From contig CALVYA010000001.1 in the NCBI GenBank assembly GCA_944371905.1, positions 5,627-69,626 of the forward strand: a stretch of DNA of 64,000 nucleotides. The letters are read 5' to 3'. This DNA is from an uncultured Bacilli bacterium. Lineage in GTDB: Bacteria; Bacillota_I; Bacilli_A; RF39; UBA660. Both the position numbers and the translations under genes were made by a program. Below are positions 6,283 to 62,912 of the stretch, piece after piece. The notes beneath the pieces were generated by a model that ran no database searches, was not told the DNA's origin, and was given only the letters and a program-made list of their open reading frames with translations. The first letter of the stretch is position 1. Each line of letters begins with the position of its first letter.

Positions 6283-7185
<903 letters not shown>

Positions 7186-7200
7186 AAGGATTTATTAAAA

Positions 7201-7232
7201 TAAACTACTGGATTTTCCGGTAGTTTATTATT
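7201..7232 (+). terminator. rho-independent terminator
   Basis: 11-bp stem taaactactgg / ccggtagttta with a weak T-run. Confidence 0.45.
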
Positions 7233-7270
7233 GTATTAATTTTATTGGTGTACATATTCGATTAATACTA

Positions 7271-7279
7271 CATAAATTA
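7271..7279 (+). promoter_or_regulatory. candidate sigma-K-type promoter (AC -35 at 7252..7253, -10 CATAAATTA)
   Basis: AC-N17-CATAAATTA arrangement 24 nt upstream of the ATG. Confidence 0.4.
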
Positions 7280-7302
7280 ATTTTGAAAGGATATGTTATG
7301 AA

Positions 7303-8094
7303 ATGAAAAGTGAAGATTTTAATAATTATTTGAAAAAATATCCAAGATTTTGTTACTTTATACTTCCTCATTTAACGGGTCCAACGGGAGCAATCGGACC
7401 AACAGGACCAACAGGACCAACGGGACCAACCGGAGCAACGGGAGCAATCGGACCAACCGGAGCAACGGGAGCAATTGGACCAACAGGACCAACCGGAGCA
7501 ACGGGAGCAACGGGAGCAATTGGACCAACAGGACCAACCGGAGCAATCGGACCAACAGGACCAATAGGAGCAACAGGACCAACCGGAGCAATTGGACCAA
7601 CAGGACCAACCGGAGCAACGGGAGCAACGGGAGCAATCGGACCAACCGGAGCAACAGGACCAATGGGAACTAGTGCAGTTCCTGAGTCGTTATCAACAGT
7701 AGATATTGCACCACAACCTGGTATTGCTAGTCAGCCATTATCTTTTAATATTAATACTGTAACATCAGGTCAATTGATTACACATGCTACGAATTCTCCT
7801 AATATTATAATTTCAGGTAATGGGATTTATCAAGTATTATTTAATGGAAGCATAGCCCCTTTCTCTAGTACTACTTTACCTGCTTCCATTGTTATTTATT
7901 TAACTACCAATGGTTCTATTAGTAATATAGGAGCTACACAAACGTTTACTTCTATAGAAACAGATACTATTTCTTTTCAGGGGTTAATTAAAATAACAAA
8001 TGCACCAGTTACTTTAAATGTTTTAGTAGAAAATTCTGGTTTTTTATTTAGCAATATTACTCTAACAGTTATTAGATTAGGAAATATTAGTTAA
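7303..8094 (+). CDS. BclA-like collagen-like exosporium glycoprotein, paralogue 2
   Basis: About 33 G-P/A-T and G-A-I triplets (9-bp tandem repeats 7378..7670), then a Thr/Ser/Asn-rich C-terminal beta domain. Tandem with 6313..7185. Confidence 0.75.
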
Positions 8095-21325: not shown

Positions 21326-21352
21326 GAGTATGATTACCATACTCTTTTTTTT
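21326..21352 (+). terminator. rho-independent terminator of serS
   Basis: Stem gagtatg / catactc followed by an 8-T run. Confidence 0.65.
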
Positions 21353-21509: not shown

Positions 21510-24500
21510 ATGAAAGGGAGTAGGGGTATGTTTAAGAAGAGATATTTTTTTGTATTTATTATAATTGTAGGTGTTTTAATAGGAGGAAAGCTATTATATC
21601 AAAGTACTATTAGTAAAAATTTATCTATAAATAGTATATTGTCAAGTTCCTCTTATTCTTATTTACCGAATGAAGCGAAAGAATATGTAATGGATGTTTA
21701 TAATGAGACAGGAGAGTTGATTTTAACAGAGAAGAATAAGAAAGCAAATACTCCCTATTTAAATCCACAGTATGTAGAATATTTGAAATTAAGTAAGCAA
21801 GAAAGAGCAGAACTTGATTTAATTCCTAATGTTTATAGCATAGATTATTTTGCTAGTTCTTCATCTGAGGTGTCAGAGTTACCAGAATCATATGATTTAA
21901 GAAATGTTGATGGTAATAATTACGTCGGTCCTTTAGAAAATCAAGCTAGTTCAGGATTGTGTTGGGCTTTTGCTACTTTAGGACAAGCAGAAAGTTATCT
22001 TATGATTCAAAATAATCAACCATATAATGATGCTACACAGACTTTTTCAGAAAGACAATTAGATTATGCAACTAGTAATAATGGAATATTAGATTATAAT
22101 AATAAATTTGGTAGTAGAGAGTTATTAGATGATGGAGCTAATTTTTCTGATGCCATAGAAATAATGGCGTATGGTTTGTCTTTAGTGGATGAAAGTTTAA
22201 TGCCGTTTGATGAGAATTCGGAACCTAAAAAATTAAGTGATGTTTTAAATTTCAACAATTCTTTATATGAGGTGGAACAAACAATTGAATTAGGTACTGC
22301 TGCTGGAAAAACAAGTTTGGAATATCAATATGGTAATATATGTTCAGAATATGATGCCGTTGATGAGTATGAAGAATTTGAGAACTGTATCAATGAGTAT
22401 CAAAACTCATTACAAGAGAGAATTTTATATGAGGCTAAGGATAATATCATGAAATACGGAGGCGCTTATGCTGGAACGATAAGTCCAAATTCTAGTTGTG
22501 CTTTTCAAAATAGTGATGGAAGTTATGTTATCAATGTTTCTTCGTCATGCTATTCCATTCAGGAAGGACATGCTATGCATGTTATTGGTTGGGATGATAA
22601 TTATGAGTATGAGTATTGTGATGCAGGTAAACATAATACATCTTTAGTAAATGGTGGTTGTGAAGAAGGGGAATTAACGAAAGGAAAAGGCGCTTTTATT
22701 TTAAAAAACTCTTGGGGTAATACAACAGACTATGGATATGTGTATTTAACGTATAATTCCTTTGATACTAGTGCATCAGCACCTCAATTTTCATATATTA
22801 CCTCTATGTCTAGTAACGAATTAAAAAATTGGGATAATTTTTATCCGATGGAACAAGATTATGGTAGTTATGTAGGATATAGCAAGAACGTTTCCGAAAC
22901 TTTTGAAAACAAACTAGGTGGAACAGAAAAACTAGAAAAAATAAAGTTTATTATTGGCTCATATGATTCTTCTTTTACTTTAACTATAACTTCTGGTGAA
23001 ACTGTTTATAGTGAAGAGATAACAAAAGAACATCCAGGAATTTATACAGTAGATTTATCTGATAAAGATATTTATATAGATAGTTTAGAAACTTTTACCG
23101 TAAGTATAAGTAGTGATGTTTCATATTTAACTAATGATTCTATTTCTGCCTATACTTCAAATGTGGATGAGATTCCAATTATACAAACAGAGGAGATCGT
23201 AACAGACGATTTGTCTTTTGTTGTTTATTCTGATACGAAAAATATAGATTCAGATGAATTAATTACGTATAAACTATATGATGGCAAGACAGAACTTGAA
23301 AATTATTTGGTAGTTAAAAATAATGAGGTAGCCGCTAACAATGTTAATGCCTCTATAGAAATTGTTGGAAAAATTGAAAAGGGCGAATATACATTAGTAC
23401 AAAGTTATCATGATTATTCATATCAAACAAAGTTAACATTGACAAAATCATATAATTTGGAGGGGGATGGCACCATTGATAGTCCTTATATTATAAACAA
23501 TCAAGATGAATTAAAATTAATGTCAGATAATTTGTCAGCTTATTATAAACTGAATAGCGATATTGTATTAACGGAAGATTGGACACCGGTAGGGACAATG
23601 GAAGAACCATTTACAGGTGGATTTGATGGTAATGGGCACACCATATCTAATTTAACATCAAATAGTACTAATTTAGATTATGTCGGCTTATTTGGATATG
23701 TTAATGCTTTAGAAAATAGACCTATATATTTTAAAAATATAACTATAAAAGATGCCAATATCAGTGGAACTAATGAAGCAGGAATATTGATAGGACATCT
23801 ACAAATTCAAAACAACTCTAATATTTTAATAGATTCTATTTATATGATTGATGGTTTTCTATCCGGTAATGATGCTGGTTCTCTCATTGGTTATATTCTT
23901 AATGAGGGATATAGTGAAATACCTGAATCATTCGTAGTAAATAATGTATTTTCTTCTGTTAACATATATAATTCTACTAATTCTGGAGTAATTGGGGTTA
24001 ATTATGCAGTTGATTGTAATATTGATTTTTCAAATATTCAAAATATAGGTATTACTTCAAGTAATATTGTTGGATTACCCGCAATGAATAAAAATAATGC
24101 ATTTATAGGGCAATTTGCTAAAAATTCTTATCATATTAATAGTTTTATATTTAGTGGTTTTACTAAAACGAATGATAGTATTTTCAATCACTTAATTCAA
24201 AGTTCAGATTTTAATGGTTCTAATGGATATTATCTAAAAATGAAAAATAATTCTTGGGATAGTAGTAATAGTAGTGTATATGCAGTAGATTCGGTATTAA
24301 ATTTAAAGAATAAGGACAACTATCAATCTTGGGAAAATTTTGATAAATATTGGAAAATAGAAGTTATTGATGGAATAACTAGGATACCAATATTAAAAGG
24401 TGTTAATATTCCATATACTACAATATCTGATATTAGTATTAATATTGGTGATACAGTATCACTTCTTGAATATATTACTCCAACAACTGATGCCAATAGA

Positions 24501-26276
24501 ATTTCTTATCAAATAAAAGATAATGATAATATAATCGAATTTAAGAATGTATATCAAGACGATAGTACTATTCCTACAGATATAACAATGAAAGGATTAG
24601 AATATGGAGAAGCAACAATACATATTGTAAGTAATTATGATGGATATGAAAAGGATATAAAAATTACTGTTGCTGACCCAGAAAAGACAACTATTATTTA
24701 TCATTCAAATGATAATAATGATGAAACATATATCCAAAAAGTTGAATTAAATACCAATTATCAGTTAATTGAAAATCCATTTGTAAATAACGGATATAAA
24801 TTTAAAAATTGGAATACTTCTGCTGATGGTAGTGGGGATGAGTATCACCCTTATAAAGAAATGAATGGAACAGAAGGTACTGTTCATTTATATGCCCAAT
24901 GGGAACCTATTACATATAAAGTGATTTTTCACTCAAATTATGATACTGATGAATTTATAGAACAAACCTTTACCTATAATAAAGAAGAGAAATTAATGAA
25001 AAACCCATTTACCAATGATGGAAGTGTATTTCTTGGATGGAATACAAAACCTGATGGTACAGGCGATTCTTATTCGGATAATCAATTGGTTAGTAATTTA
25101 GTATCCATAAATAATGGTGAAATTCATTTATATGCTAAGTGGTCTAAAAAAACATATGATGTAAATTATTTTTATAACTTAAAAGATAAGAGAGAATTGA
25201 TTGATTATGACACTTATGAGTACGATGAAGAATTTAAATTACTAGATATAGAAGATGAAACTGGTTATAAATTTATTGGTTGGGGAACAAATCCGGATGG
25301 AACAGGAACAAATTATTTAGTAAATGAAACTGTAAAAAACCTTACAACAAATTCCGAGATTAATTTATATACTATTTTTGAACCTATAACATATAAAGTA
25401 GTGTTTCATTCTAATCATAGTCTAGAAGAGGTAAAAGAACAAATATTTACTTACGATAACGAAGAAGAGTTATCTTCGAATACATTTGAAAGAATTGGTT
25501 ATAAATTTGTTGGATGGAATACCAAAAAAGATGGAAGTGGAACAACCTATAGCGATGAGCAAATTATAAAGAACTTAACTAACAATGATAATGAAACAAT
25601 AACTTTATATGCAATGTGGGAGAAAGAAATAAGAAAGATTATATATAACGCTAATAATGAAACAGACGAGTCAATAACAAAAGAATATCATTACGATGAG
25701 AAAATCACATTAGAAAAGAATCCGTTTACAAAAGAAGGTTATACCTTTAAAGAGTGGAATACTAAACAAGATGGAAGTGGAACGGCATATCAAAGCGAAG
25801 AAATTATTACAATAACCAAAGATATTACTTTATATGCCATATGGGAAGAAGAATTTGATTATATAATTAATAATTATCATGTAGATTATACTAATAATTA
25901 TATAAGTAAAGTGATTGTTAATACTACTGTTGATAAATTTAAAAACAATATTATTTTAGGTAGCGGATATAGCATAGATATTGAATATAGAGAAATAAAT
26001 AATAATAGAATAATATATACGGGAAGTAAAACTCAAATATATAAAGGAGATAAAATATATAAGGAATTTACTAATGTTGTAATAGGTGATATTAATGGTG
26101 ATGGTATGATTAATTCAGCAGATTTGCTTAGAGTAAGACAACATTTATTAGGTAGTATTTCATTAACTGGAATATATTTCTTATCTTCAGATATTAATTA
26201 TGATAATTCTATTAATTCAGCAGATTTGCTTAGAATAAGACAACATTTATTAGGTAGTAAGCCTATATCAGAATAA
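21510..26276 (+). CDS. large secreted multidomain protein: papain-like (C1) cysteine peptidase domain, middle beta-rich region, five Listeria-Bacteroides (Flg_new) repeats, and a C-terminal type-I dockerin
   Basis: N-terminal TM/signal helix. QASSGLCWAFATLGQ (papain Cys site) and NSWGNTTDYGYVYL (Asn-Ser-Trp). Repeats of the form YK(V/I)xFHSN...GYKFxGWNT...DGSG...LYAxW, x5. Terminal DINGDGMINSADLLRVRQHLLG and DINYDNSINSADLLRIRQHLLG, which are the two Ca-binding dockerin segments. Confidence 0.8.
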   Translation: MKGSRGMFKKRYFFVFIIIVGVLIGGKLLYQSTISKNLSINSILSSSSYSYLPNEAKEYVMDVYNETGELILTEKNKKANTPYLNPQYVEYLKLSKQERAELDLIPNVYSIDYFASSSSEVSELPESYDLRNVDGNNYVGPLENQASSGLCWAFATLGQAESYLMIQNNQPYNDATQTFSERQLDYATSNNGILDYNNKFGSRELLDDGANFSDAIEIMAYGLSLVDESLMPFDENSEPKKLSDVLNFNNSLYEVEQTIELGTAAGKTSLEYQYGNICSEYDAVDEYEEFENCINEYQNSLQERILYEAKDNIMKYGGAYAGTISPNSSCAFQNSDGSYVINVSSSCYSIQEGHAMHVIGWDDNYEYEYCDAGKHNTSLVNGGCEEGELTKGKGAFILKNSWGNTTDYGYVYLTYNSFDTSASAPQFSYITSMSSNELKNWDNFYPMEQDYGSYVGYSKNVSETFENKLGGTEKLEKIKFIIGSYDSSFTLTITSGETVYSEEITKEHPGIYTVDLSDKDIYIDSLETFTVSISSDVSYLTNDSISAYTSNVDEIPIIQTEEIVTDDLSFVVYSDTKNIDSDELITYKLYDGKTELENYLVVKNNEVAANNVNASIEIVGKIEKGEYTLVQSYHDYSYQTKLTLTKSYNLEGDGTIDSPYIINNQDELKLMSDNLSAYYKLNSDIVLTEDWTPVGTMEEPFTGGFDGNGHTISNLTSNSTNLDYVGLFGYVNALENRPIYFKNITIKDANISGTNEAGILIGHLQIQNNSNILIDSIYMIDGFLSGNDAGSLIGYILNEGYSEIPESFVVNNVFSSVNIYNSTNSGVIGVNYAVDCNIDFSNIQNIGITSSNIVGLPAMNKNNAFIGQFAKNSYHINSFIFSGFTKTNDSIFNHLIQSSDFNGSNGYYLKMKNNSWDSSNSSVYAVDSVLNLKNKDNYQSWENFDKYWKIEVIDGITRIPILKGVNIPYTTISDISINIGDTVSLLEYITPTTDANRISYQIKDNDNIIEFKNVYQDDSTIPTDITMKGLEYGEATIHIVSNYDGYEKDIKITVADPEKTTIIYHSNDNNDETYIQKVELNTNYQLIENPFVNNGYKFKNWNTSADGSGDEYHPYKEMNGTEGTVHLYAQWEPITYKVIFHSNYDTDEFIEQTFTYNKEEKLMKNPFTNDGSVFLGWNTKPDGTGDSYSDNQLVSNLVSINNGEIHLYAKWSKKTYDVNYFYNLKDKRELIDYDTYEYDEEFKLLDIEDETGYKFIGWGTNPDGTGTNYLVNETVKNLTTNSEINLYTIFEPITYKVVFHSNHSLEEVKEQIFTYDNEEELSSNTFERIGYKFVGWNTKKDGSGTTYSDEQIIKNLTNNDNETITLYAMWEKEIRKIIYNANNETDESITKEYHYDEKITLEKNPFTKEGYTFKEWNTKQDGSGTAYQSEEIITITKDITLYAIWEEEFDYIINNYHVDYTNNYISKVIVNTTVDKFKNNIILGSGYSIDIEYREINNNRIIYTGSKTQIYKGDKIYKEFTNVVIGDINGDGMINSADLLRVRQHLLGSISLTGIYFLSSDINYDNSINSADLLRIRQHLLGSKPISE

Positions 26277-26292
26277 TTAGGAGGAGTTAGAA

Positions 26293-27645
26293 GTGAAGAA
26301 AATAAAAATTCTATTCATGGGAATAGTTACAATAATTACCTTATTTATCTTAAATACAGATGTGTTTGCTGCATCAGCTAGTTTATCCGCTAGTACTAGT
26401 AGTGTGTATGTTGGAGATCGATTTACGGTATCTGTTCATGTGAATGCGGCTGCTTGGAATGTGCATACCTCTGTTAGTGGGCCTGTAAGTGGTTGTATCA
26501 TTAATCAAGCAGATGCATCTATGGATGCAATGAATACTAATAAAACATTTACAGCTACTTGTACAGCAACAGGGGAAGGTACAATTACTGTTACTTTATA
26601 TGGTGATGTAACGGGTGATACAGATATTTATGCTACGCAGGTATCAGGTACTAGGAAGGTAACTGTATCTAAAAGACCTACTTCATCTGGTAATAATAAC
26701 AATAATAACCATAATACAAATACAACTGGAGGCAATAATTATAATAATAATACGCCTTCAAAATCTACTAATAACAAAATAAAAGAAATTTCTGTAGAAG
26801 GTTATGATTTAGTTAAAAAAGATGCTAATCATTATACATTAACTGTACCTACGGATGTAACAAGTATTAATGTTAAAGTAACTGCAGAAGATGCTAAAGC
26901 TAAAGTAACAGGAGTAGGGAATCATAATTTAAATATAGGAGATAATAATATTGAAGTTATTATTACTTCCGAGTCTGGTAGCCAAAACAAAATAAATATT
27001 AAAGTTATAAGAAAAGATGGATATTATTTGGAAGACTTAGAAGATGTATTAAATAATGATACTATTGATGAAGTTAATGTTAATATTTTATCAGATACTA
27101 TCATCAGTTCTGAAGAATTAAATAAAATAAAGAGTAGTAAAAAAATAGTTCATTTCAATTATAATAATAATGGTCGGTTACTGTATTCTTGGATTATAGA
27201 TGGTTCCTTAATAGATAATACTGTTGATATATTAACTACTATTTCTTATGATAGTGATAATAAGGCTACTATGTTAAGATTATCTAATTATGCAGATGGT
27301 TTATTTATAAGTGCTAGTGGTTCTAATAATATGCCTAAGGAAACGAAAATCAAATTATATGTTGGTGATAAATATAGTGATGGAGAATTAGTTAATGTTT
27401 ATTCTTATTCTAAGGATAATGAAAAATTAATTTTAGGACAAAGTGATTTAAAAGTGAAGGATGGTTATATAGTATTTGATGCTAGCGAAGCAGACGATTA
27501 TCTAGTTACTATGTCTAATATTTCTTCTGTTGATGACACTACTTCATCTAGTAATTTAGTTTATATAATAATTATTAGTTTGCTATTGTTAGTAATAGCG
27601 GTGCTTTCCTTCTTTCTAATTAAAAAGATGAAAAATAAGAAATAA
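26293..27645 (+). CDS. C-tail-anchored surface protein with cadherin-like beta-sandwich domain(s) and possible N-terminal cohesin-like domain
   Basis: Signal peptide, Asn-rich linker, cadherin-like repeat (KEISVEGYDL...TAEDAKAKVTGVG...NNIEVIITSESGSQNKINIKVIRKD). C-terminal TM helix followed by KKMKNKK. Starts 17 nt after the dockerin protein's stop. Confidence 0.55.
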   Translation: MKKIKILFMGIVTIITLFILNTDVFAASASLSASTSSVYVGDRFTVSVHVNAAAWNVHTSVSGPVSGCIINQADASMDAMNTNKTFTATCTATGEGTITVTLYGDVTGDTDIYATQVSGTRKVTVSKRPTSSGNNNNNNHNTNTTGGNNYNNNTPSKSTNNKIKEISVEGYDLVKKDANHYTLTVPTDVTSINVKVTAEDAKAKVTGVGNHNLNIGDNNIEVIITSESGSQNKINIKVIRKDGYYLEDLEDVLNNDTIDEVNVNILSDTIISSEELNKIKSSKKIVHFNYNNNGRLLYSWIIDGSLIDNTVDILTTISYDSDNKATMLRLSNYADGLFISASGSNNMPKETKIKLYVGDKYSDGELVNVYSYSKDNEKLILGQSDLKVKDGYIVFDASEADDYLVTMSNISSVDDTTSSSNLVYIIIISLLLLVIAVLSFFLIKKMKNKK

Positions 27646-36143: not shown

Positions 36144-36560
36144 TTATATTCCACTAACGAATGTATCTGTTAAACATCTTAATGCTCCAACACAGTTTAA
36201 GTTAATTGTAAAGAAATCATTGGTTGAAATATATGGAAAACTAGTTGCTTCGTTAGTATCTGGATTAGGTGCTAATACTCTAAATGTTGCACAATTGTCA
36301 TCTAAGTTTTCAATTCTAAATACGGTACTTGTACCAGTAGTTCCATTTAATGTGTATGGTAATGACCAAAGTTCATTATTAGAACAATTATATAGAGTAA
36401 TAGGTCTAGTATTTAGGCATATACCACTTGGAGTAGGCCCTAGAAATGGTTTGGTACATCCTGTTGGACAATCGCAATCTTCTCCTTTTTGTTGTAATGT
36501 CAGAATTAATTCTAAAGTTTTAATAAAAGAACAAGAACATTCATTATTATTTCCACACAT
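36144..36560 (-). CDS. CotZ/CotY/ExsY-family cysteine-rich spore coat / exosporium protein
   Basis: Cys-rich 138 aa. EDCDCPTGC, NTRPIT..Y.C.NN, STVFRIENLDDNCATFRVL and INLNCVGALRCL align with recalled B. subtilis CotZ (EDCPTGC...NTVFFRVERV...C...DCFCAINCL). Confidence 0.7.
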   Translation of the reverse strand: MCGNNNECSCSFIKTLELILTLQQKGEDCDCPTGCTKPFLGPTPSGICLNTRPITLYNCSNNELWSLPYTLNGTTGTSTVFRIENLDDNCATFRVLAPNPDTNEATSFPYISTNDFFTINLNCVGALRCLTDTFVSGI

Positions 36561-36575
36561 AATTATCCCCCTTTC

Positions 36576-36989
36576 TTATAAATCTACAATAGTATCAGCT
36601 AAACATTTTAATACACATACGCACCCTAAATTAATAGTTGCAGTATTTCTTGTTGTAATATATGGTCTTATAGTATCTGTGGTATCAGGATTAGGGATTA
36701 AGATAGATACTACTAAACATCCATCCTCTACACTTTCTACTCTAAAAATACTACTGGTTCCTGTTAATCTTTCTCCATTAATTACTGTATCATAATTAAG
36801 GGAAATTAAGTTATTGTTACATCCATAAAATGTGATGGGTCTTGTATTAAAACAAAGACTAGGCATATCTACACCTAAAAATGGTCTGCTACAAGTATTA
36901 TCAAAACATTCTTCTTTTTCTGAACTATGTTGTAAAATATCAATTACTTTTAAAATTTTAGTAAAGCAACAACAATTACTACTCATCAA
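36576..36989 (-). CDS. CotZ/CotY/ExsY-family cysteine-rich spore coat / exosporium protein, tandem paralogue
   Basis: 137 aa, same motif series (CSRPFLG, NTRPITFYGC, SSIFRVESVEDGC, INLGCVCVLKCL). 15 nt upstream of its paralogue, so an operon. Confidence 0.7.
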   Translation of the reverse strand: MMSSNCCCFTKILKVIDILQHSSEKEECFDNTCSRPFLGVDMPSLCFNTRPITFYGCNNNLISLNYDTVINGERLTGTSSIFRVESVEDGCLVVSILIPNPDTTDTIRPYITTRNTATINLGCVCVLKCLADTIVDL

Positions 36990-37187: not shown

Positions 37188-38780
37188 ATGAAAAGATTTT
37201 ATATAAGTTTTTTATTGATGTTTTTACTAGTGATTCCTCTTAATGTAGAGGCAGAGTCAAAATTAACTTTGGAATGCGATAATAATAATGTTGCAGGAGA
37301 GACTTTAAGTTGTATAGTAAAGTCTAGTAGTGATATAGCTTATAATAAATTAGAAAGTAATATAGAATTGCCTAATAGTGCTAGTGTTACATTTAAAGCT
37401 ACTAGTGGTATTACAGGTGCTATTTCTAATAATAAATTAATTGTTACTAGTACTAGTAATATTTCTAATGGTAATTTAGGAACACTTCAAATAAAATTTT
37501 CCAGTGATACGACAGGAAATAATGTAATTAAATTATCTAATATAAAAATTTTTAATAATCAAGAGGAAGTAGATATTACTAGTGATGTAAGTGCTACTGT
37601 CAAAGTAAAATCTACGGTGAATACTTTATCTTCTCTTACATTAGAAGATTGTGGATCTTGTAGTTTAAGTCCAGCTTTTAAAGAAAATTTAACAATTTAT
37701 ATTGTTAATACAGAATCTAATAAAATTACTTTTAATGCTAAAGCAAATGGAAATGCCAAAATAGTTGGAGCGGGTACTAAAACTTTAACTAAAGATAGTG
37801 AAACGTTTAGAATTATTGTTACGTCTGAAGTAGGAGAGTCTAGAGAATATAGTATTACAGTGAAAAGAAATATAAAAAAATCTAATGATAATGCTTTAAA
37901 AGAATTATCTATTGATAAGGGAGAATTAAAATTAAAAGAGTCGAATGGTATTAGTAGTTATAATGCTGTTGTAGATAGCGATGAAGTAACTATTATAGCT
38001 GTTGCTAATGATAGTAAAGCAACAATTACAGGAGTTGGTAAGAAAACTCTTGATTATGGAAAGAATGAATTTACTATTATTGTTACTGCAGAAGATGGAA
38101 CTTCCAGAAGCTATTTGATTGTGATTAATCGTACGGATACTAGGAATGCAAATGCATATCTTAAAGATTTAACTATTGATGGTGAAGATATTGATTTTGA
38201 AAAAGATATTATTGAATATGAGTATTATGTTAGTGATGATATTACTGAAATAGAGATCGATGCTATTCCAGAGTTAGAAAGTTCTACTGTTGAAATAGAA
38301 GGAAATAAAGATTTCAAAGAAGGAGAGAATATTGTTACTATTACTGTGAAAGCAGAAGATGGTAGTGAAAAAATTTATACCATTGTAGTTATTAAAGGTA
38401 AAATTATTAATGATGATATTTATTTAGATGATTTAACAATTCATGGATATGATATTGACTTTAAACAAGATAAATTTGGTTATACTCTTACGATCGGAAA
38501 AGAAGATCATCTAGATATTAATACTATATTTGATACGGATAAATATACAGTTGAAATCGTAGGAAATGAAGAATTGCAGGATGGTAGTATTATAAAAATA
38601 ATAATTACGGACGAAGATGGTAATAGTAATATTTATAAAATAAAGATTGAAAAAAGCCAAGAAAAAGAAGGTATAAAAAAAGAAGATATCAATTATATTC
38701 CTATCATTATGAGTGGTATATTGGGATTATTAGTAATTTTAAATATTATGCAAATTGTAAAAAAAGTTCGTAATAAATAA
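37188..38780 (+). CDS. C-tail-anchored surface protein: N-terminal cohesin-like domain plus about 4 cadherin-like beta-sandwich repeats
   Basis: Signal peptide. About 80-aa repeats ending ...TxxxxTGxGxKTL..G.N.FTIxVTAEDGxSxxYxIxI. C-terminal TM helix followed by KKVRNK. Divergent from the cotZ-like operon. Confidence 0.6.
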   Translation: MKRFYISFLLMFLLVIPLNVEAESKLTLECDNNNVAGETLSCIVKSSSDIAYNKLESNIELPNSASVTFKATSGITGAISNNKLIVTSTSNISNGNLGTLQIKFSSDTTGNNVIKLSNIKIFNNQEEVDITSDVSATVKVKSTVNTLSSLTLEDCGSCSLSPAFKENLTIYIVNTESNKITFNAKANGNAKIVGAGTKTLTKDSETFRIIVTSEVGESREYSITVKRNIKKSNDNALKELSIDKGELKLKESNGISSYNAVVDSDEVTIIAVANDSKATITGVGKKTLDYGKNEFTIIVTAEDGTSRSYLIVINRTDTRNANAYLKDLTIDGEDIDFEKDIIEYEYYVSDDITEIEIDAIPELESSTVEIEGNKDFKEGENIVTITVKAEDGSEKIYTIVVIKGKIINDDIYLDDLTIHGYDIDFKQDKFGYTLTIGKEDHLDINTIFDTDKYTVEIVGNEELQDGSIIKIIITDEDGNSNIYKIKIEKSQEKEGIKKEDINYIPIIMSGILGLLVILNIMQIVKKVRNK

Positions 38781-41001: not shown

Positions 41002-42108
41002 ATGGAAAAAGAAAAAAAAGGAAAGAAAATTTGGAAATATTTAATTATAATATTATTAATATTATTGGTAATTTCTTTAATAATAGGAGGTTATTTTTTA
41101 AAATTATATTTATATCCTACAGTATCATTTTCATTAAAGGGAGAAGAGAAGTATCTATTATCTTATGGTGATAAATATGAAGAAGCAGGAGCAGAAGCTA
41201 AAGTTAATGGGAAGGATTATAATAATAAAATAAAAATAGATGATAGCAAAGTTAAAATAGATGAATTAGGCGAATATAAAATTAATTATAGTATTACTTT
41301 ACCAAATGGGAAACAAGAAAATTTAGAGAGAATTATAAAAGTAGTGGATGATATTAAACCAGAAATTAAATTAAAAGGAGATAATCCTATAAAAATAAGT
41401 TATGGATCTACTTTTACTGAACCTGGATATGAAGTATCAGATAACTATGATGAAAGTGATACTCTAAAAGTAGAAGTTACTTATGACAGGACAATTAATA
41501 CTAAAGAGTCAGGGACTTATCAAATTACTTATACAGTTACAGATAGTAATCATAATTCTAATAGTATAGTGCGTGAGGTTATTGTAAGCCCTAGAATTGT
41601 AGTAATAAATGGAATTACTTATGTAGAAGGAATATTAATTGTAAACAAGAAGTATTCTCTTCCTGCTAATTATAATCCAGGTGAGAATAAGGAAGCAGCA
41701 AACCAATTATATTTAATGAGGATGGAAGCTGCTAAATATGGATATGATTTAAGATATTGTTCAGGATTTAGATCTTATAATTATCAAACTAATTTATATA
41801 ACAATTATGTAAAAAAATATGGTCAAGCTATGACGGATACTTTCTCAGCAAAACCAGGTCACTCTGAACATCAAACAGGACTTGCCTTTGATATTGGTGC
41901 AATTGATGATAATTTTGGTGATACAGAAACTGGTAAATGGTTAGCGATTAATGCTCATAAATATGGTTTTATTATTCGCTATCCAAAAGGAAAACAGGAT
42001 GTAACAGGATATAAATATGAACCTTGGCATGTAAGATATTTAGGAGTAGAACTAGCTACTAAAGTATACAAAAGTGGATTAACCTTGGAAGAATATTTAA
42101 ATATTTAG
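41002..42108 (+). CDS. membrane-anchored D-Ala-D-Ala carboxypeptidase (peptidase M15B / VanY-like) with Ig-like (DUF5011-type) domains
   Basis: N-terminal TM helix, two Ig-like repeats (KPEIKLKGDNPIKISYGSTFTEPGYEVSDNYD...). C-terminal M15 motifs SGFRSYNYQ, HSEHQTGLAFDI and EPWHVRY. Confidence 0.75.
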   Translation: MEKEKKGKKIWKYLIIILLILLVISLIIGGYFLKLYLYPTVSFSLKGEEKYLLSYGDKYEEAGAEAKVNGKDYNNKIKIDDSKVKIDELGEYKINYSITLPNGKQENLERIIKVVDDIKPEIKLKGDNPIKISYGSTFTEPGYEVSDNYDESDTLKVEVTYDRTINTKESGTYQITYTVTDSNHNSNSIVREVIVSPRIVVINGITYVEGILIVNKKYSLPANYNPGENKEAANQLYLMRMEAAKYGYDLRYCSGFRSYNYQTNLYNNYVKKYGQAMTDTFSAKPGHSEHQTGLAFDIGAIDDNFGDTETGKWLAINAHKYGFIIRYPKGKQDVTGYKYEPWHVRYLGVELATKVYKSGLTLEEYLNI

Positions 42109-59909: not shown

Positions 59910-61361
59910 ATGGAGAAAGATACAATAAGAAAGGTAAAAAGAGTCAAAAAAAGGATCAAAATTCATAAAAAAGCAGTTGCTATGACCGCTATTTCATTAA
60001 TTTTAATTGCGGTGATTATTGCTGTTTGTTTTATATTTTTTGTTCCTAATATTAAATTATTAGGAGATAAAGTAATAACGTTGAAATTAGATGACACTTA
60101 TAAAGATAGTGGAATAGTTGCAACTTATCGCGGTAAAGATGTAACTGATGAAGTAAAAATAGAAGATAATATTGAATATGGTAAAGTAGGTACTTATAAA
60201 ATAACTTACAGTATTAAAAAAGGAATTTTTGAAACTGTGAAAAAACGAACAATTAAAATAATTGATGATATAAAACCAGAAATTATTTTAGAAGGTGAAG
60301 AAGAAGTTACTATTTGCCCAGGCAAAGAATTTGAGGAAATAGGTTATAAAGCTACAGATAATTATGATGGGGATATTACCAAAAAAGTGGAAGTTAAAGA
60401 GTCTGATGATAAAATCACTTATACAGTAGAAGATAGTAGTGGTAATAAGGCAACTGTTACTAGAAAAATTGTACGAAACGATAAGGAAGGTCCAAAAATA
60501 ACTTTAAAAGGTGATGAAACAATATACATCAAGAAAGGAGAAACTTTTAAAGATCCTGGATATACTGCTATGGATAATTGTGATGGAGATGTATCTAAAA
60601 ATATCGAAGTAGAAGGTGAAGTAGATACTAGTCAAATAGGGACACAGATTATTACTTATAAAGTTAAAGATAAAAAAGGAAATGAAACTAAAACAACTAG
60701 GGAAATTTATGTTACTAGTCCGAATGGTCAAGGTGGAATGATTTATTTAACCTTTGATGATGGACCTAGCAATGTCACAGGACCAATATTAGATGTACTG
60801 AAAAAAAGAGGAGTAAAAGCTACGTTCTTTGTTATTAATCAATCAGATAATCTTAATTATTTAATTAAAAGAGCTTATGATGAAGGACATACGATAGGAC
60901 TTCATTCTTATAGTCATCAATATAATTTGGTATATAAATCTACAAATGCTTATTTTGATGATTTAAATGCTATTAGTGAAAAAGTAGAAAAAATAACTGG
61001 TGAGAAATCTAAGATTATTCGATTCCCTGGTGGAGGTTCTAATACTATTAGTAAAAAGTATTCTCAAGGGATCATGACAGTGTTAACTAATGAAGTGTTA
61101 TCACGGGGATATCATTATTTCGATTGGAATGTTGATTGTAATGATGCAGGTGGAGCTAAAACCAAAGAGCAAGTATATAGTAATGTAGTTAATAATTTAA
61201 GACATAATCAAGCCAATGTGGTTTTAATGCATGATTTTCAAAATAATTACAAGACATTAGAAGCATTAGATGATATAATAAGTTATGGATTAGCAAAAGG
61301 TTATACATTTGCAGCAATAGATATGAGCACGCCGTTAGTTAGGCATAGAGTAAATAATTAA
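59910..61361 (+). CDS. membrane-anchored polysaccharide deacetylase (NodB/CE4) with two Ig-like (DUF5011-type) domains
   Basis: N-terminal TM. Ig-like repeats (KPEIILEGEEEVTICPGKEFEEIGYKATDNYDGD). CE4 motifs TFDDGP and HSYSHQ. Confidence 0.8.
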   Translation: MEKDTIRKVKRVKKRIKIHKKAVAMTAISLILIAVIIAVCFIFFVPNIKLLGDKVITLKLDDTYKDSGIVATYRGKDVTDEVKIEDNIEYGKVGTYKITYSIKKGIFETVKKRTIKIIDDIKPEIILEGEEEVTICPGKEFEEIGYKATDNYDGDITKKVEVKESDDKITYTVEDSSGNKATVTRKIVRNDKEGPKITLKGDETIYIKKGETFKDPGYTAMDNCDGDVSKNIEVEGEVDTSQIGTQIITYKVKDKKGNETKTTREIYVTSPNGQGGMIYLTFDDGPSNVTGPILDVLKKRGVKATFFVINQSDNLNYLIKRAYDEGHTIGLHSYSHQYNLVYKSTNAYFDDLNAISEKVEKITGEKSKIIRFPGGGSNTISKKYSQGIMTVLTNEVLSRGYHYFDWNVDCNDAGGAKTKEQVYSNVVNNLRHNQANVVLMHDFQNNYKTLEALDDIISYGLAKGYTFAAIDMSTPLVRHRVNN

Positions 61362-61364
61362 GGA

Positions 61365-62912
61365 GTGAGTTATATGAAAAGGAAAAAGGGGATTTTATTA
61401 TTAGTAGTAGGATTACTTATATTAATTCCATCTATTGTTTTAGCAGCGCAACCGACAGTTGAATTATCAGGAGTTTTAAATGCTAAACCTGGTGATACTG
61501 TAGCGTATGATATTAAGATTAATTCTTCAGGGGATACACGTGCTTCTAAATATGAAGCTAATTTAGAGTATGATCAGAATATTCTTGAATTAAAAAGTAT
61601 AACCGCTAAATCTTGGACGAAAGAAAGCGGTTCTAGTGATTTAAATTTCTCATATCAAGATGGAATTTCTGGAAGTTCTACTATTGCTACTATCACTTTT
61701 AAAGTTAAGGATAACGTTCCAAAACAAACAACTAATATTGCTTTAAAAGATATTAAGATTACAACTTTAGATGAAGAAGATAGTTCAAGTATTGTCACTA
61801 TTTCGGAAAATGCTTCTCATAAGGTATCTTTATCTGTTAAGTCAACAGATAATACTTTAAAAGATTTAAAAGTCGATGGTAAAACAATAGAAGATTTTAA
61901 AAAAGATAATTATGAGTATGAATTATCGGTTTCTTCTGATACTGATGAAGTAGAAATAAAAGCAACACCAACAAACGCTAATGCAACATTTGAAGAGGGA
62001 TTTGGTAATAGAGATGTTAAATTAGACTATGGAGAAAATGAAGTTTTAATAAAAGTGAAAGCAGAATCTGGTGAAATTCAGGTATATAAATTACTAATTA
62101 CTCGTGAAGATGATCGTAATACTAATAATGATTTAAAAGAAATTATTATTAATTCTGGTAGAATAAAATTAGAACTATCTAAAAATAAAGTTAATTATAC
62201 AATTAAAACTTACAAATTAAAAGAGTTAGAAATCGATGCTGTGCCAGTGGATGAAAAAGCAAAAGTAGAAATAGAAATACCTGATGAAATAATAGTTGGA
62301 GATAATGTAGTTACTATAACAGTAACTAGTGAAACTGGTGAGGAAAAAGTTTATACTTTAACATTTGAAAATAGTGATAAAGAATTAGATACTAAATTAA
62401 AAAATTTATATATCAAAGGTTATAATATTGATTTTGATAAAAATACGATGGTTTACCAAATTGTGTACAATAAAAAATATAAAAATGGATTAGATTTTAG
62501 TATTGTTACAGCTGATGATGAAGAGTTAGTTGGATATACTATTTTCTATAATGGAGAAGAAGTAACAGATGATACTAATATTTCTTTAAAACCTGGAGAT
62601 AAGTATGAAATTCGAGTATATCCACTAGGTTTGGAAGAAGGAGATAGTAGTGAGACTACTACTTATACAATTGAAATAGTAAAAGATAAACGTGTTAGCT
62701 TTTTCTTAATTTTAGAAATTTTAATTGCTTTAGTATTGTTTGTATTAATAATTGTTCAAGTTGTAAAAAGAAATAAAAAACGTAAAAACAACGCTAATCA
62801 AGAGAACAATAATAATGTAGTATCTAATGAAAAATTGCAAGAAGAAGTAAATAAAACAAAAGTAATTGATACAGATGAATTAAATAAAATAAATGAATTA
62901 GATAAAGAATAG
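61365..62912 (+). CDS. C-tail-anchored surface protein: N-terminal cohesin domain plus cadherin-like beta-sandwich repeats
   Basis: Signal peptide. The segment TVELSGVLNAKPGDTVAYDIKIN...LEYDQNILEL...IATITFKVKDN matches the type-I cohesin pattern (compare recalled CipA NAKPGDTVRIPV...YDPNVLEI...FATIVAKVK). Then about 4 cadherin-like repeats. C-terminal TM followed by KRNKKRKNN. Confidence 0.65.
   Translation: MSYMKRKKGILLLVVGLLILIPSIVLAAQPTVELSGVLNAKPGDTVAYDIKINSSGDTRASKYEANLEYDQNILELKSITAKSWTKESGSSDLNFSYQDGISGSSTIATITFKVKDNVPKQTTNIALKDIKITTLDEEDSSSIVTISENASHKVSLSVKSTDNTLKDLKVDGKTIEDFKKDNYEYELSVSSDTDEVEIKATPTNANATFEEGFGNRDVKLDYGENEVLIKVKAESGEIQVYKLLITREDDRNTNNDLKEIIINSGRIKLELSKNKVNYTIKTYKLKELEIDAVPVDEKAKVEIEIPDEIIVGDNVVTITVTSETGEEKVYTLTFENSDKELDTKLKNLYIKGYNIDFDKNTMVYQIVYNKKYKNGLDFSIVTADDEELVGYTIFYNGEEVTDDTNISLKPGDKYEIRVYPLGLEEGDSSETTTYTIEIVKDKRVSFFLILEILIALVLFVLIIVQVVKRNKKRKNNANQENNNNVVSNEKLQEEVNKTKVIDTDELNKINELDKE

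Follow-up and report, generated by a model that had tools for sequence, protein, structure and literature searches.

The pairing of cohesins with dockerins is a textbook case of how proteins assemble from modules outside the cell and is much used as a tool in engineering, and its receptors have so far been recognised via one family model. Near-identical dockerin segments are a feature of type I dual-binding dockerins; in type II and III pairs, such as the X module-dockerin (X-dockerin) of Clostridium thermocellum CipA with SdbA or that of Ruminococcus flavefaciens CttA with CohE, the receptor sits on a cell-anchored protein. Secreted hydrolases, including peptidases, carry dockerins in non-cellulosomal gut and pathogen systems (PMC12997984, PMC4611034), and dockerin-bearing peptidases have already been reported from rumen and gut systems (PMC6487960, PMC12997984, PMC3573020). 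Here we describe a two-gene locus in a stretch of 64,000 nt (the window) from contig CALVYA010000001.1 of an uncultured Bacilli bacterium (assembly GCA_944371905.1, positions 5,627 to 69,626); all coordinates below are window positions on the forward strand unless stated otherwise. The first gene, open reading frame 1 (ORF1, 21510..26276), encodes a multidomain cysteine protease of the papain family, secreted and with a dockerin at its C-terminus, and the second, ORF2 (26293..27645), a 450-aa type I membrane protein (Pfam, hydropathy, AlphaFold model) that we propose as its anchor and receptor. Our reading, to which we give a probability of roughly 0.6, is that the two genes form an 'enzyme plus its own anchor' cassette, in which the dockerin would mediate display of the cysteine protease on the adjacent membrane partner. 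An earlier note on this DNA had located both ORFs correctly and treated ORF2 as a mere neighbour; on the evidence below, ORF2 is the most probable docking partner.

The dockerin occupies residues 1526-1581 of ORF1 (26085..26252) and is the sole dockerin found in the window. It scores 50.2 bits against the Pfam model Dockerin_1 (PF00404) in the full protein and 53.5 bits as isolated C-terminus (cutoff 22.9), which bears out the two-segment dockerin of the earlier note. Both of its near-identical 22-residue calcium-loop/helix segments show D-N-D-N-D at calcium-ligand positions 1, 3, 5, 9 and 12. They are encoded by a direct DNA repeat of 70 nt x 2 with 89% identity (26088-26157 and 26190-26259); the 46-bp near-perfect direct repeat seen previously is real, but it is the core of this longer one. 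The dockerin is preceded by a conserved module of ~75 aa, here called the X module (~residues 1448-1522, 25851..26075), which stands at the same place on most of the cargo proteins checked, unrelated as these are; in ORF1 it gave no Pfam match and no detectable similarity to known X modules. The label 'type-I' attached to this dockerin is the name of the Pfam model only: the near-identical segments do fit a type I dual-binding dockerin, but the conserved upstream module found on most cargos is reminiscent of the X-dockerins in type II and III pairs.

A signal peptide at the N-terminus and a transmembrane (TM) helix in the C-terminal part make ORF2 a type I membrane protein; 'tail-anchored', the term suggested before, does not strictly apply. 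Its AlphaFold model (mean predicted local distance difference test score, pLDDT, 81) shows an N-terminal module (N-module), a linker, a Cadherin-like domain, a membrane-proximal alpha/beta domain and the TM helix in this order. The N-module (residues 28-128, 26374..26676; motif VYVGD.FTV...AAWNVH...GPVSGC) is the proposed dockerin-binding module, and the model places it at the distal end of a disordered Asn-rich linker (residues ~129-158, 26677..26766; pLDDT <50 over residues 132-155). The following beta-sandwich (~residues 159-243, 26767..27021; Pfam and model) matches Cadherin-like (PF12733) with 31.5 bits against a cutoff of 24.2 over residues 177-241, so that the description of ORF2 as a Cadherin-like membrane protein holds. 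It is followed by a conserved alpha/beta ectodomain (C-ectodomain; residues 246-412, 27028..27528), which is absent from some partner variants, and by the TM helix with a short basic tail (27550..27627; hydropathy and model). The two genes are separated by a spacer of 16 nt that contains the ribosome-binding site AGGAGGAG (26279..26286; AGGAGG) and in which a terminator-like site was looked for and not found. Upstream, a terminator-like hairpin with T-run (21326..21344) after a seryl-tRNA synthetase-like gene would mark the start of a separate transcription unit. This layout fits a predicted two-gene operon.

The pair recurs widely. A homolog search with ORF1 returned 322 proteins, and the architecture of C1 domain, Flg_new repeats and dockerin is found in more than 100 of the 120 homologs listed (31-89% identity); nearly all are proteins from metagenomes or metagenome-assembled genomes (MAGs), and the few that are named appear at NCBI as 'InlB B-repeat-containing protein [Bacilli bacterium]'. 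The protein had been called unusual; given this shared architecture and the dockerin peptidases already reported, we do not uphold that description. The ORF2 family (714 matches) is better conserved than that of ORF1, at 55-62% identity. The closest genome locus to the cassette lies in an 'uncultured Bacilli bacterium' MAG, and the sources of homologous loci include human gut metagenomes. In five distant relatives a Cadherin-like membrane protein of 461-529 aa is encoded 1-20 nt 3' of the protease gene or with a 4-nt overlap, and these pairs sit in at least four different flanking contexts. Looking from the other side, a dockerin-ending ORF lies directly upstream of the partner in 39 fetched partner loci that have enough upstream sequence (counted from the tabulated loci). 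To judge from gene order, the ORF1-ORF2 pair is a conserved operon-like cassette and not an isolated oddity.

The partner goes with the dockerin and not with the cargo. An exhaustive dockerin search recovered the same dockerin type (59-86% identical), in most cases together with the X module, on S8 subtilases with BspA-type leucine-rich repeats (LRRs), on metallo-beta-lactamase-fold proteins and on a SASA sialate O-acetylesterase. Behind the subtilase and the metallo-beta-lactamase-fold genes lies, in each case, a partner gene with the same N-module, the partner of the subtilase being 56% identical to ORF2 over the whole ectodomain. 3' of the esterase gene (L067) we found an ORF with N-module and linker only, a TM-like stretch lying in another frame; no intact partner is readable behind the esterase on its short contig. 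Many of the fetched metagenome cassettes carry S8 cargo instead of C1 cargo. Protease homologs that have ChW or choline-binding repeats as C-terminal anchor lack a partner downstream (3/3). Among the partners themselves, one (L065) is without the C-ectodomain and has kept the N-module; of the ectodomains, only the N-module occurs in all partners of this dockerin type. The cargos found are peptidases, a metallo-beta-lactamase-fold protein and an esterase, with no glycoside hydrolase among the nine cargos scanned. Each partner contains one N-module and each cargo has its own partner gene, an arrangement different from that of a multi-cohesin scaffoldin.

Further evidence comes from the joint switching of dockerin and N-module. 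Dockerins at these loci form discrete sequence types, and the type of the N-module switches along with them. Among the helix positions in which the dockerin types differ are segment positions 10-11 (Ser-Ala) and 17-18 (Arg-Gln). All 29 non-redundant dockerins of the 'S[AT]DLL..RQHLL' type pair with an N-module of the 'VYVGD.FTV..AAW' type (AAW N-module), which is found at none of the six loci with other dockerin types, taken over two locus sets (0/6). These other types pair with Big_2-like modules, as in L005, L009 and L044, or, in L063, with a module that aligns weakly to cohesin. Three of the six loci were included in the set used for the pairwise-identity matrices, from which we obtained a partial Mantel correlation between dockerin and N-module of r = 0.91 (p = 0.0002) with the C-ectodomain as control, and of 0.86-0.89 (p = 0.0003) with the modules on either side of the junction as controls. 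The dockerin is tracked neither by the C-ectodomain (r = -0.03) nor by its own upstream X module (r = 0.006). Indeed, the modules flanking the junction do not follow the switch (partial r of 0.006 for the X module and 0.195 for the Cadherin-like domain), and the exchanged unit thus matches the module boundaries. The same pattern can be seen in single pairs of loci: L009 (C1 cargo) and L042 (S8 cargo) have unrelated enzymes and only 39% identity in the C-ectodomain, but 71% in the dockerin and 65% in the N-module. Because of this joint switching, and because the N-module is the only ectodomain kept in all partners of this dockerin type, it is, from comparative sequence evidence, most likely the docking site of the ORF1 dockerin.

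By sequence, the ORF2 N-module is not a cohesin. The isolated module has no match to Pfam Cohesin (PF00963) at E-values up to 10, and neither the whole protein nor its isolated modules returned a cohesin from Pfam, NCBIfam, a phmmer search of the PDB or a PDB profile search. Compared with the profile of the lineage's own cohesin, the N-module profile reached an hhalign probability of 0.4%, i.e. the two are unrelated. By fold it is a generic beta-sandwich: predicted in isolation, it forms a compact nine-strand beta-sandwich (pLDDT 93.5), and a structure search lists Clostridium perfringens cohesins among its best matches, with generic immunoglobulin-like (Ig-like) domains scoring equally well. 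A Foldseek search with the full-length ORF2 model gave generic multi-domain Ig-like matches only. We therefore propose that the N-module works like a cohesin without being filed as one. In some lineages a Big_2-like module occupies the receptor position of the partner. Two Cys residues of the ORF2 N-module (residues 68 and 90; 26494-26562, GPVSGC ... ATC) are invariant in the family alignment of 68 sequences, and a structural disulfide in this module is possible.

Several observations weigh against protease display on ORF2. The covariation of dockerin and N-module rests on few discrete type switches (at least four), and within the common dockerin type the partial correlation of the dockerin with the N-module is 0.46, compared with 0.67 for dockerin and Cadherin-like domain. 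Fine-scale coevolution within this type was consequently dropped as a line of evidence, its signal not being specific for the N-module. Moreover, the dockerin (3' end of the first gene) and the N-module (5' end of the second) are only ~100 nt apart and could for this reason travel together in recombination tracts without interacting; physical linkage does contribute to their joint switching. The substrate that we propose below is a guess from the cargo types in relatives. Finally, the window itself holds a true cohesin with a TM anchor, which leads to the most serious of the rival explanations.

This cohesin is encoded at 61365-62912, in an ORF with signal peptide, Cohesin domain (residues ~30-152), three Cadherin-like stretches and TM helix (Pfam). 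Its match to Cohesin (PF00963) reaches 43.7 bits (cutoff 24.1, residues 32-143), and the profile of its family, which is conserved and has ~100 homologs, matches the solved cohesins 1g1k (E 9e-7), 2vn5, 4ums and 2xdh. The earlier note had counted three cohesin-like tail-anchored proteins in the window: this one is indeed a cohesin, but ORF2 and the ORF at 37188-38780 have no Cohesin match in Pfam. The latter combines three Cadherin-like stretches with a signal peptide, a C-terminal TM helix and a ~125-aa N-terminus without assignment (Pfam, hydropathy). The ORF1 dockerin might dock on the cohesin of 61365-62912, possibly on the 37188-38780 protein too, with ORF2 being co-transcribed as a spacer, an adhesin or a helper of wall passage. 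It would suit this explanation that the only dockerin in the window is that of ORF1, that no dockerin gene adjoins the cohesin, and that the N-module of the L063 partner aligns with it at 27% identity (pairwise BLASTP E 4e-8), the aligned part taking in the Cadherin-like region as well. The cohesin gene, however, lies 35 kb off and is paired with a different gene: it begins 3 nt behind the gene (59910-61361) for a membrane-anchored polysaccharide deacetylase that contains three Bact_surface_Ig-like domains. Also, no cohesin of this type is present in the other fetched loci, which comprise dozens of cassettes (762 kb scanned including the window), and docking on it would leave unexplained both why the partner is present with the dockerin, whatever the cargo, and why dockerin type and partner N-module switch jointly. 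We consider it unlikely that this protein takes the place of ORF2 as receptor, but it is the main rival candidate, or may be an additional receptor. Calling the N-terminus of the L063 partner a 'canonical cohesin' was rejected, as Pfam does not support it; the pairwise BLAST alignment to the 61365 cohesin is kept as weak evidence. Separately, the N-terminal module of 37188-38780 aligns weakly with the N-terminus of the L063 partner (pairwise BLASTP E 3e-5); this ORF stands alone, beside two CotZ genes on the opposite strand.

Alternatively, ORF2 could be a substrate, inhibitor, immunity or maturation factor of the protease, comparable to the processing of SlpA by Cwp84 in Clostridioides difficile. 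The tight coupling of the two genes would agree with such a role, there is precedent for a surface C1 protease that processes a surface protein (PMC4089489, PMC4414356), and the exposed Asn-rich linker of ORF2 would offer an accessible cleavage site according to the model. Yet essentially this partner (the one with 56% ectodomain identity) follows the S8 subtilase, shorter ones follow the metallo-beta-lactamase-fold protein and an N-module ORF follows the esterase; because the partners accompany such different enzymes, a cargo-specific role as substrate or inhibitor would not generalise. The partner is also missing where the same protease carries ChW or choline-binding anchors, and we regard this alternative as improbable. 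Least probable of all is that joint switching is purely a by-product of linkage and that the dockerin serves something other than protein docking, like calcium-dependent stabilisation or wall-polymer binding: the ~100 nt distance and the unspecific covariation within the dominant type speak for it, and many non-cellulosomal dockerins reportedly have no known partner (Peer et al. 2009), but the X module and the Cadherin-like domain on either side stay out of the switch, and where wall anchors replace the dockerin the partner is missing too, which would follow if anchoring were what it provides.

If ORF2 is the receptor, the dockerin would bind its N-module non-covalently and probably in a calcium-dependent manner, which would keep the protease at the cell surface; as its two segments are near-identical, the dockerin may bind in either orientation. 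Related gut Bacilli would display S8 subtilases and a metallo-beta-lactamase-fold protein by the same plug-and-socket principle, with matched dockerin and N-module types probably being exchanged together between lineages. The weakest step concerns the substrate: host or dietary (glyco)proteins might be cut at the cell surface and feed a gut bacterium of possibly small genome. A broader interpretation, which we offer tentatively and hold to be rather less probable than display on ORF2 as such, is that dockerins in these bacteria pair with receptors from outside the cohesin family (the AAW beta-sandwich here, Big_2-like modules elsewhere), and that matched pairs are swapped between cassettes, each of which displays a different enzyme (C1, S8, metallo-beta-lactamase-fold, sialate esterase) on a TM-anchored stalk, in a scaffoldin-free, one enzyme-one anchor system that probably serves foraging on host glycoproteins.

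Should the N-module prove to be a receptor, a large class of dockerin partners (714 matches for the partner family alone) would escape sequence surveys based on counts of Pfam cohesins, and the 'orphan' dockerins of non-cellulolytic gut bacteria would gain an explanation. The switching dockerin and N-module types would further represent candidate orthogonal binding pairs. The finding also points to surface-displayed proteases and esterases in uncultured gut Bacilli, which may act on host or dietary glycoproteins.

Turning to the enzyme itself, we find that ORF1 could start at either of two in-frame ATGs, 21510 or 21528, both of which have a plausible ribosome-binding site. From the first the protein has 1588 aa; gene callers and public calls begin at the second (1582 aa, P0001), which has its own GGGAG site. 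A hydrophobic segment at residues 6-27 (21525..21590; hydropathy scan) would be either a signal peptide or an uncleaved signal anchor. The catalytic domain (residues 124-417, 21879..22760) matches Peptidase_C1 (PF00112) with 35.2 bits (cutoff 20.7) and bears a large insertion relative to papain. In agreement with the papain domain proposed earlier, the motifs QASSGLCWAF and NSWG are present and mark the regions of the catalytic Cys151 and Asn400. When ORF1 is aligned with 120 homologs, Gln145, Cys151, His354 and Asn400, in the order Gln-Cys-His-Asn, are invariant (121/121) and Trp402 is conserved in 120 of the 121 sequences; the enzyme thus appears to be intact and under purifying selection. 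The best sequence matches in the PDB, around the catalytic Cys, are cathepsins C, K, H and L. Taken together, these predictions identify ORF1 as an exported, intact papain-family (C1) cysteine endopeptidase.

Between catalytic domain and dockerin extends a stalk of about 1100 aa, which consists of a region without assigned domain, five Flg_new repeats and the X module. The first of these (residues 431-1090, ~660 aa, 22800..24779) has no Pfam match above cutoff and no PDB sequence match. It contains the motif FTGGFDGNGHTISNL within 23430-24479 (ORF1 residues ~641-990), which we take to resemble the repeat regions of IgA-protease/GLUG-type surface proteins; no Pfam match was obtained there. One ORF1 homolog (P0108) has Peptidase_M26_N in its precomputed Pfam list. 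The five Listeria-Bacteroides repeats announced before are found as five Flg_new stretches above the Pfam cutoff (134.8 bits; residues ~1090-1447, 24777..25850). A Pfam scan of the whole of ORF1 gave only Peptidase_C1, Flg_new, Flg_new_2 and Dockerin_1.

A number of further observations concern relatives of the cassette. At L013:3227-4087 cassettes are arranged in tandem, with an S8 subtilase gene beginning right behind a partner gene, and at L060:816-10232 the C1 protease and the S8 subtilase with LRRs adjoin each other, both in choline-binding-anchored versions; these arrangements give the impression that the C1 and S8 enzymes function as a pair in these bacteria. A partner-like ORF at L045:2449-3525 lacks signal peptide and N-module, has no dockerin gene upstream and may be the remnant of a decayed cassette. 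On a 'Bacilli bacterium' MAG contig of 1,458,723 bp, annotation splits the protease gene into several short pieces (UKI27696-UKI27701), among them one labelled 'dockerin type I repeat-containing protein'; either the gene is a pseudogene here or the assembly contains frameshift errors, and the size of the contig hints at a small genome. The dockerin search also yielded P0366-P0377, proteins 315-1868 aa long, each of which contains between 4 and 18 dockerin-like stretches (~30-40% identity); poly-dockerin proteins of this kind are unusual.

Elsewhere in the window, neighbouring genes at 6313-8094 encode two collagen-repeat (GPT) proteins whose ends are weakly BclA C-terminal/C1q-like. They look like exosporium-filament proteins, and their genes account for a local spike in GC content (0.38 compared with ~0.27). 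On the reverse strand, 36144-36989 holds two tandem Cys-rich paralogs, of which 36144-36560 matches the spore coat protein CotZ (Pfam, 46.8 bits), the second being 36576-36989; the CotZ match supports a spore-forming organism, as far as gene content can indicate. A membrane-anchored VanY D-Ala-D-Ala carboxypeptidase at 41002-42108 is fused to two Bact_surface_Ig-like domains of the same type as those of the deacetylase at 59910.

Several known systems resemble the locus in part. In the toxin complexes of C. perfringens, the amylosome of Ruminococcus bromii and the 'mucinolysome' of Limousia, enzymes likewise end in a two-segment calcium-type dockerin, for which a beta-sandwich receptor (here a proposed one) is provided by a cell-associated protein of a non-cellulolytic gut organism. 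Unlike those systems, ORF1 and ORF2 involve no multi-cohesin scaffoldin, each enzyme gene being followed by its own partner with a single receptor module, and this module, in contrast to the cohesins of those systems, is missed by the Pfam Cohesin model and by profile comparison. Anchoring of the ORF2 type relies on a C-terminal TM helix, and the domain scans showed neither an SLH nor a sortase-type anchor. With regard to the conserved module in front of the dockerin, ORF1 is like the X-dockerins of types II and III, from which it differs in its near-identical segments and in an X module without detectable similarity to known ones.

As for the cargo, a dockerin protein of R. flavefaciens carries a cysteine-peptidase-type module, as ORF1 does (PMC3573020), and rumen dockerin proteins include a C10 streptopain-like peptidase (PMC6487960). 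Those proteins, however, come from cellulosome producers or unassigned contigs and dock on scaffoldin cohesins, whereas ORF1 belongs to family C1 and combines a full catalytic set with a stalk of ~1100 aa and a dedicated adjacent membrane partner. ORF1 can further be likened to Cwp84 of C. difficile, a C1A protease that is attached to the surface non-covalently through a C-terminal anchoring module (PMC4089489). Cwp84 has CWB2 repeats and a defined substrate, SlpA; ORF1 has a dockerin instead, with no CWB2 repeats in the Pfam scan, and Cwp84 is absent from its PDB sequence matches. In the literature searched, coverage of which was incomplete, we found no description of this two-gene cassette. 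It differs from the described systems in its scaffoldin-free layout of one gene and one anchor, in its anchoring by a TM helix, in a proposed receptor module outside the recognised cohesin family and in the probable exchange of matched pairs between lineages.

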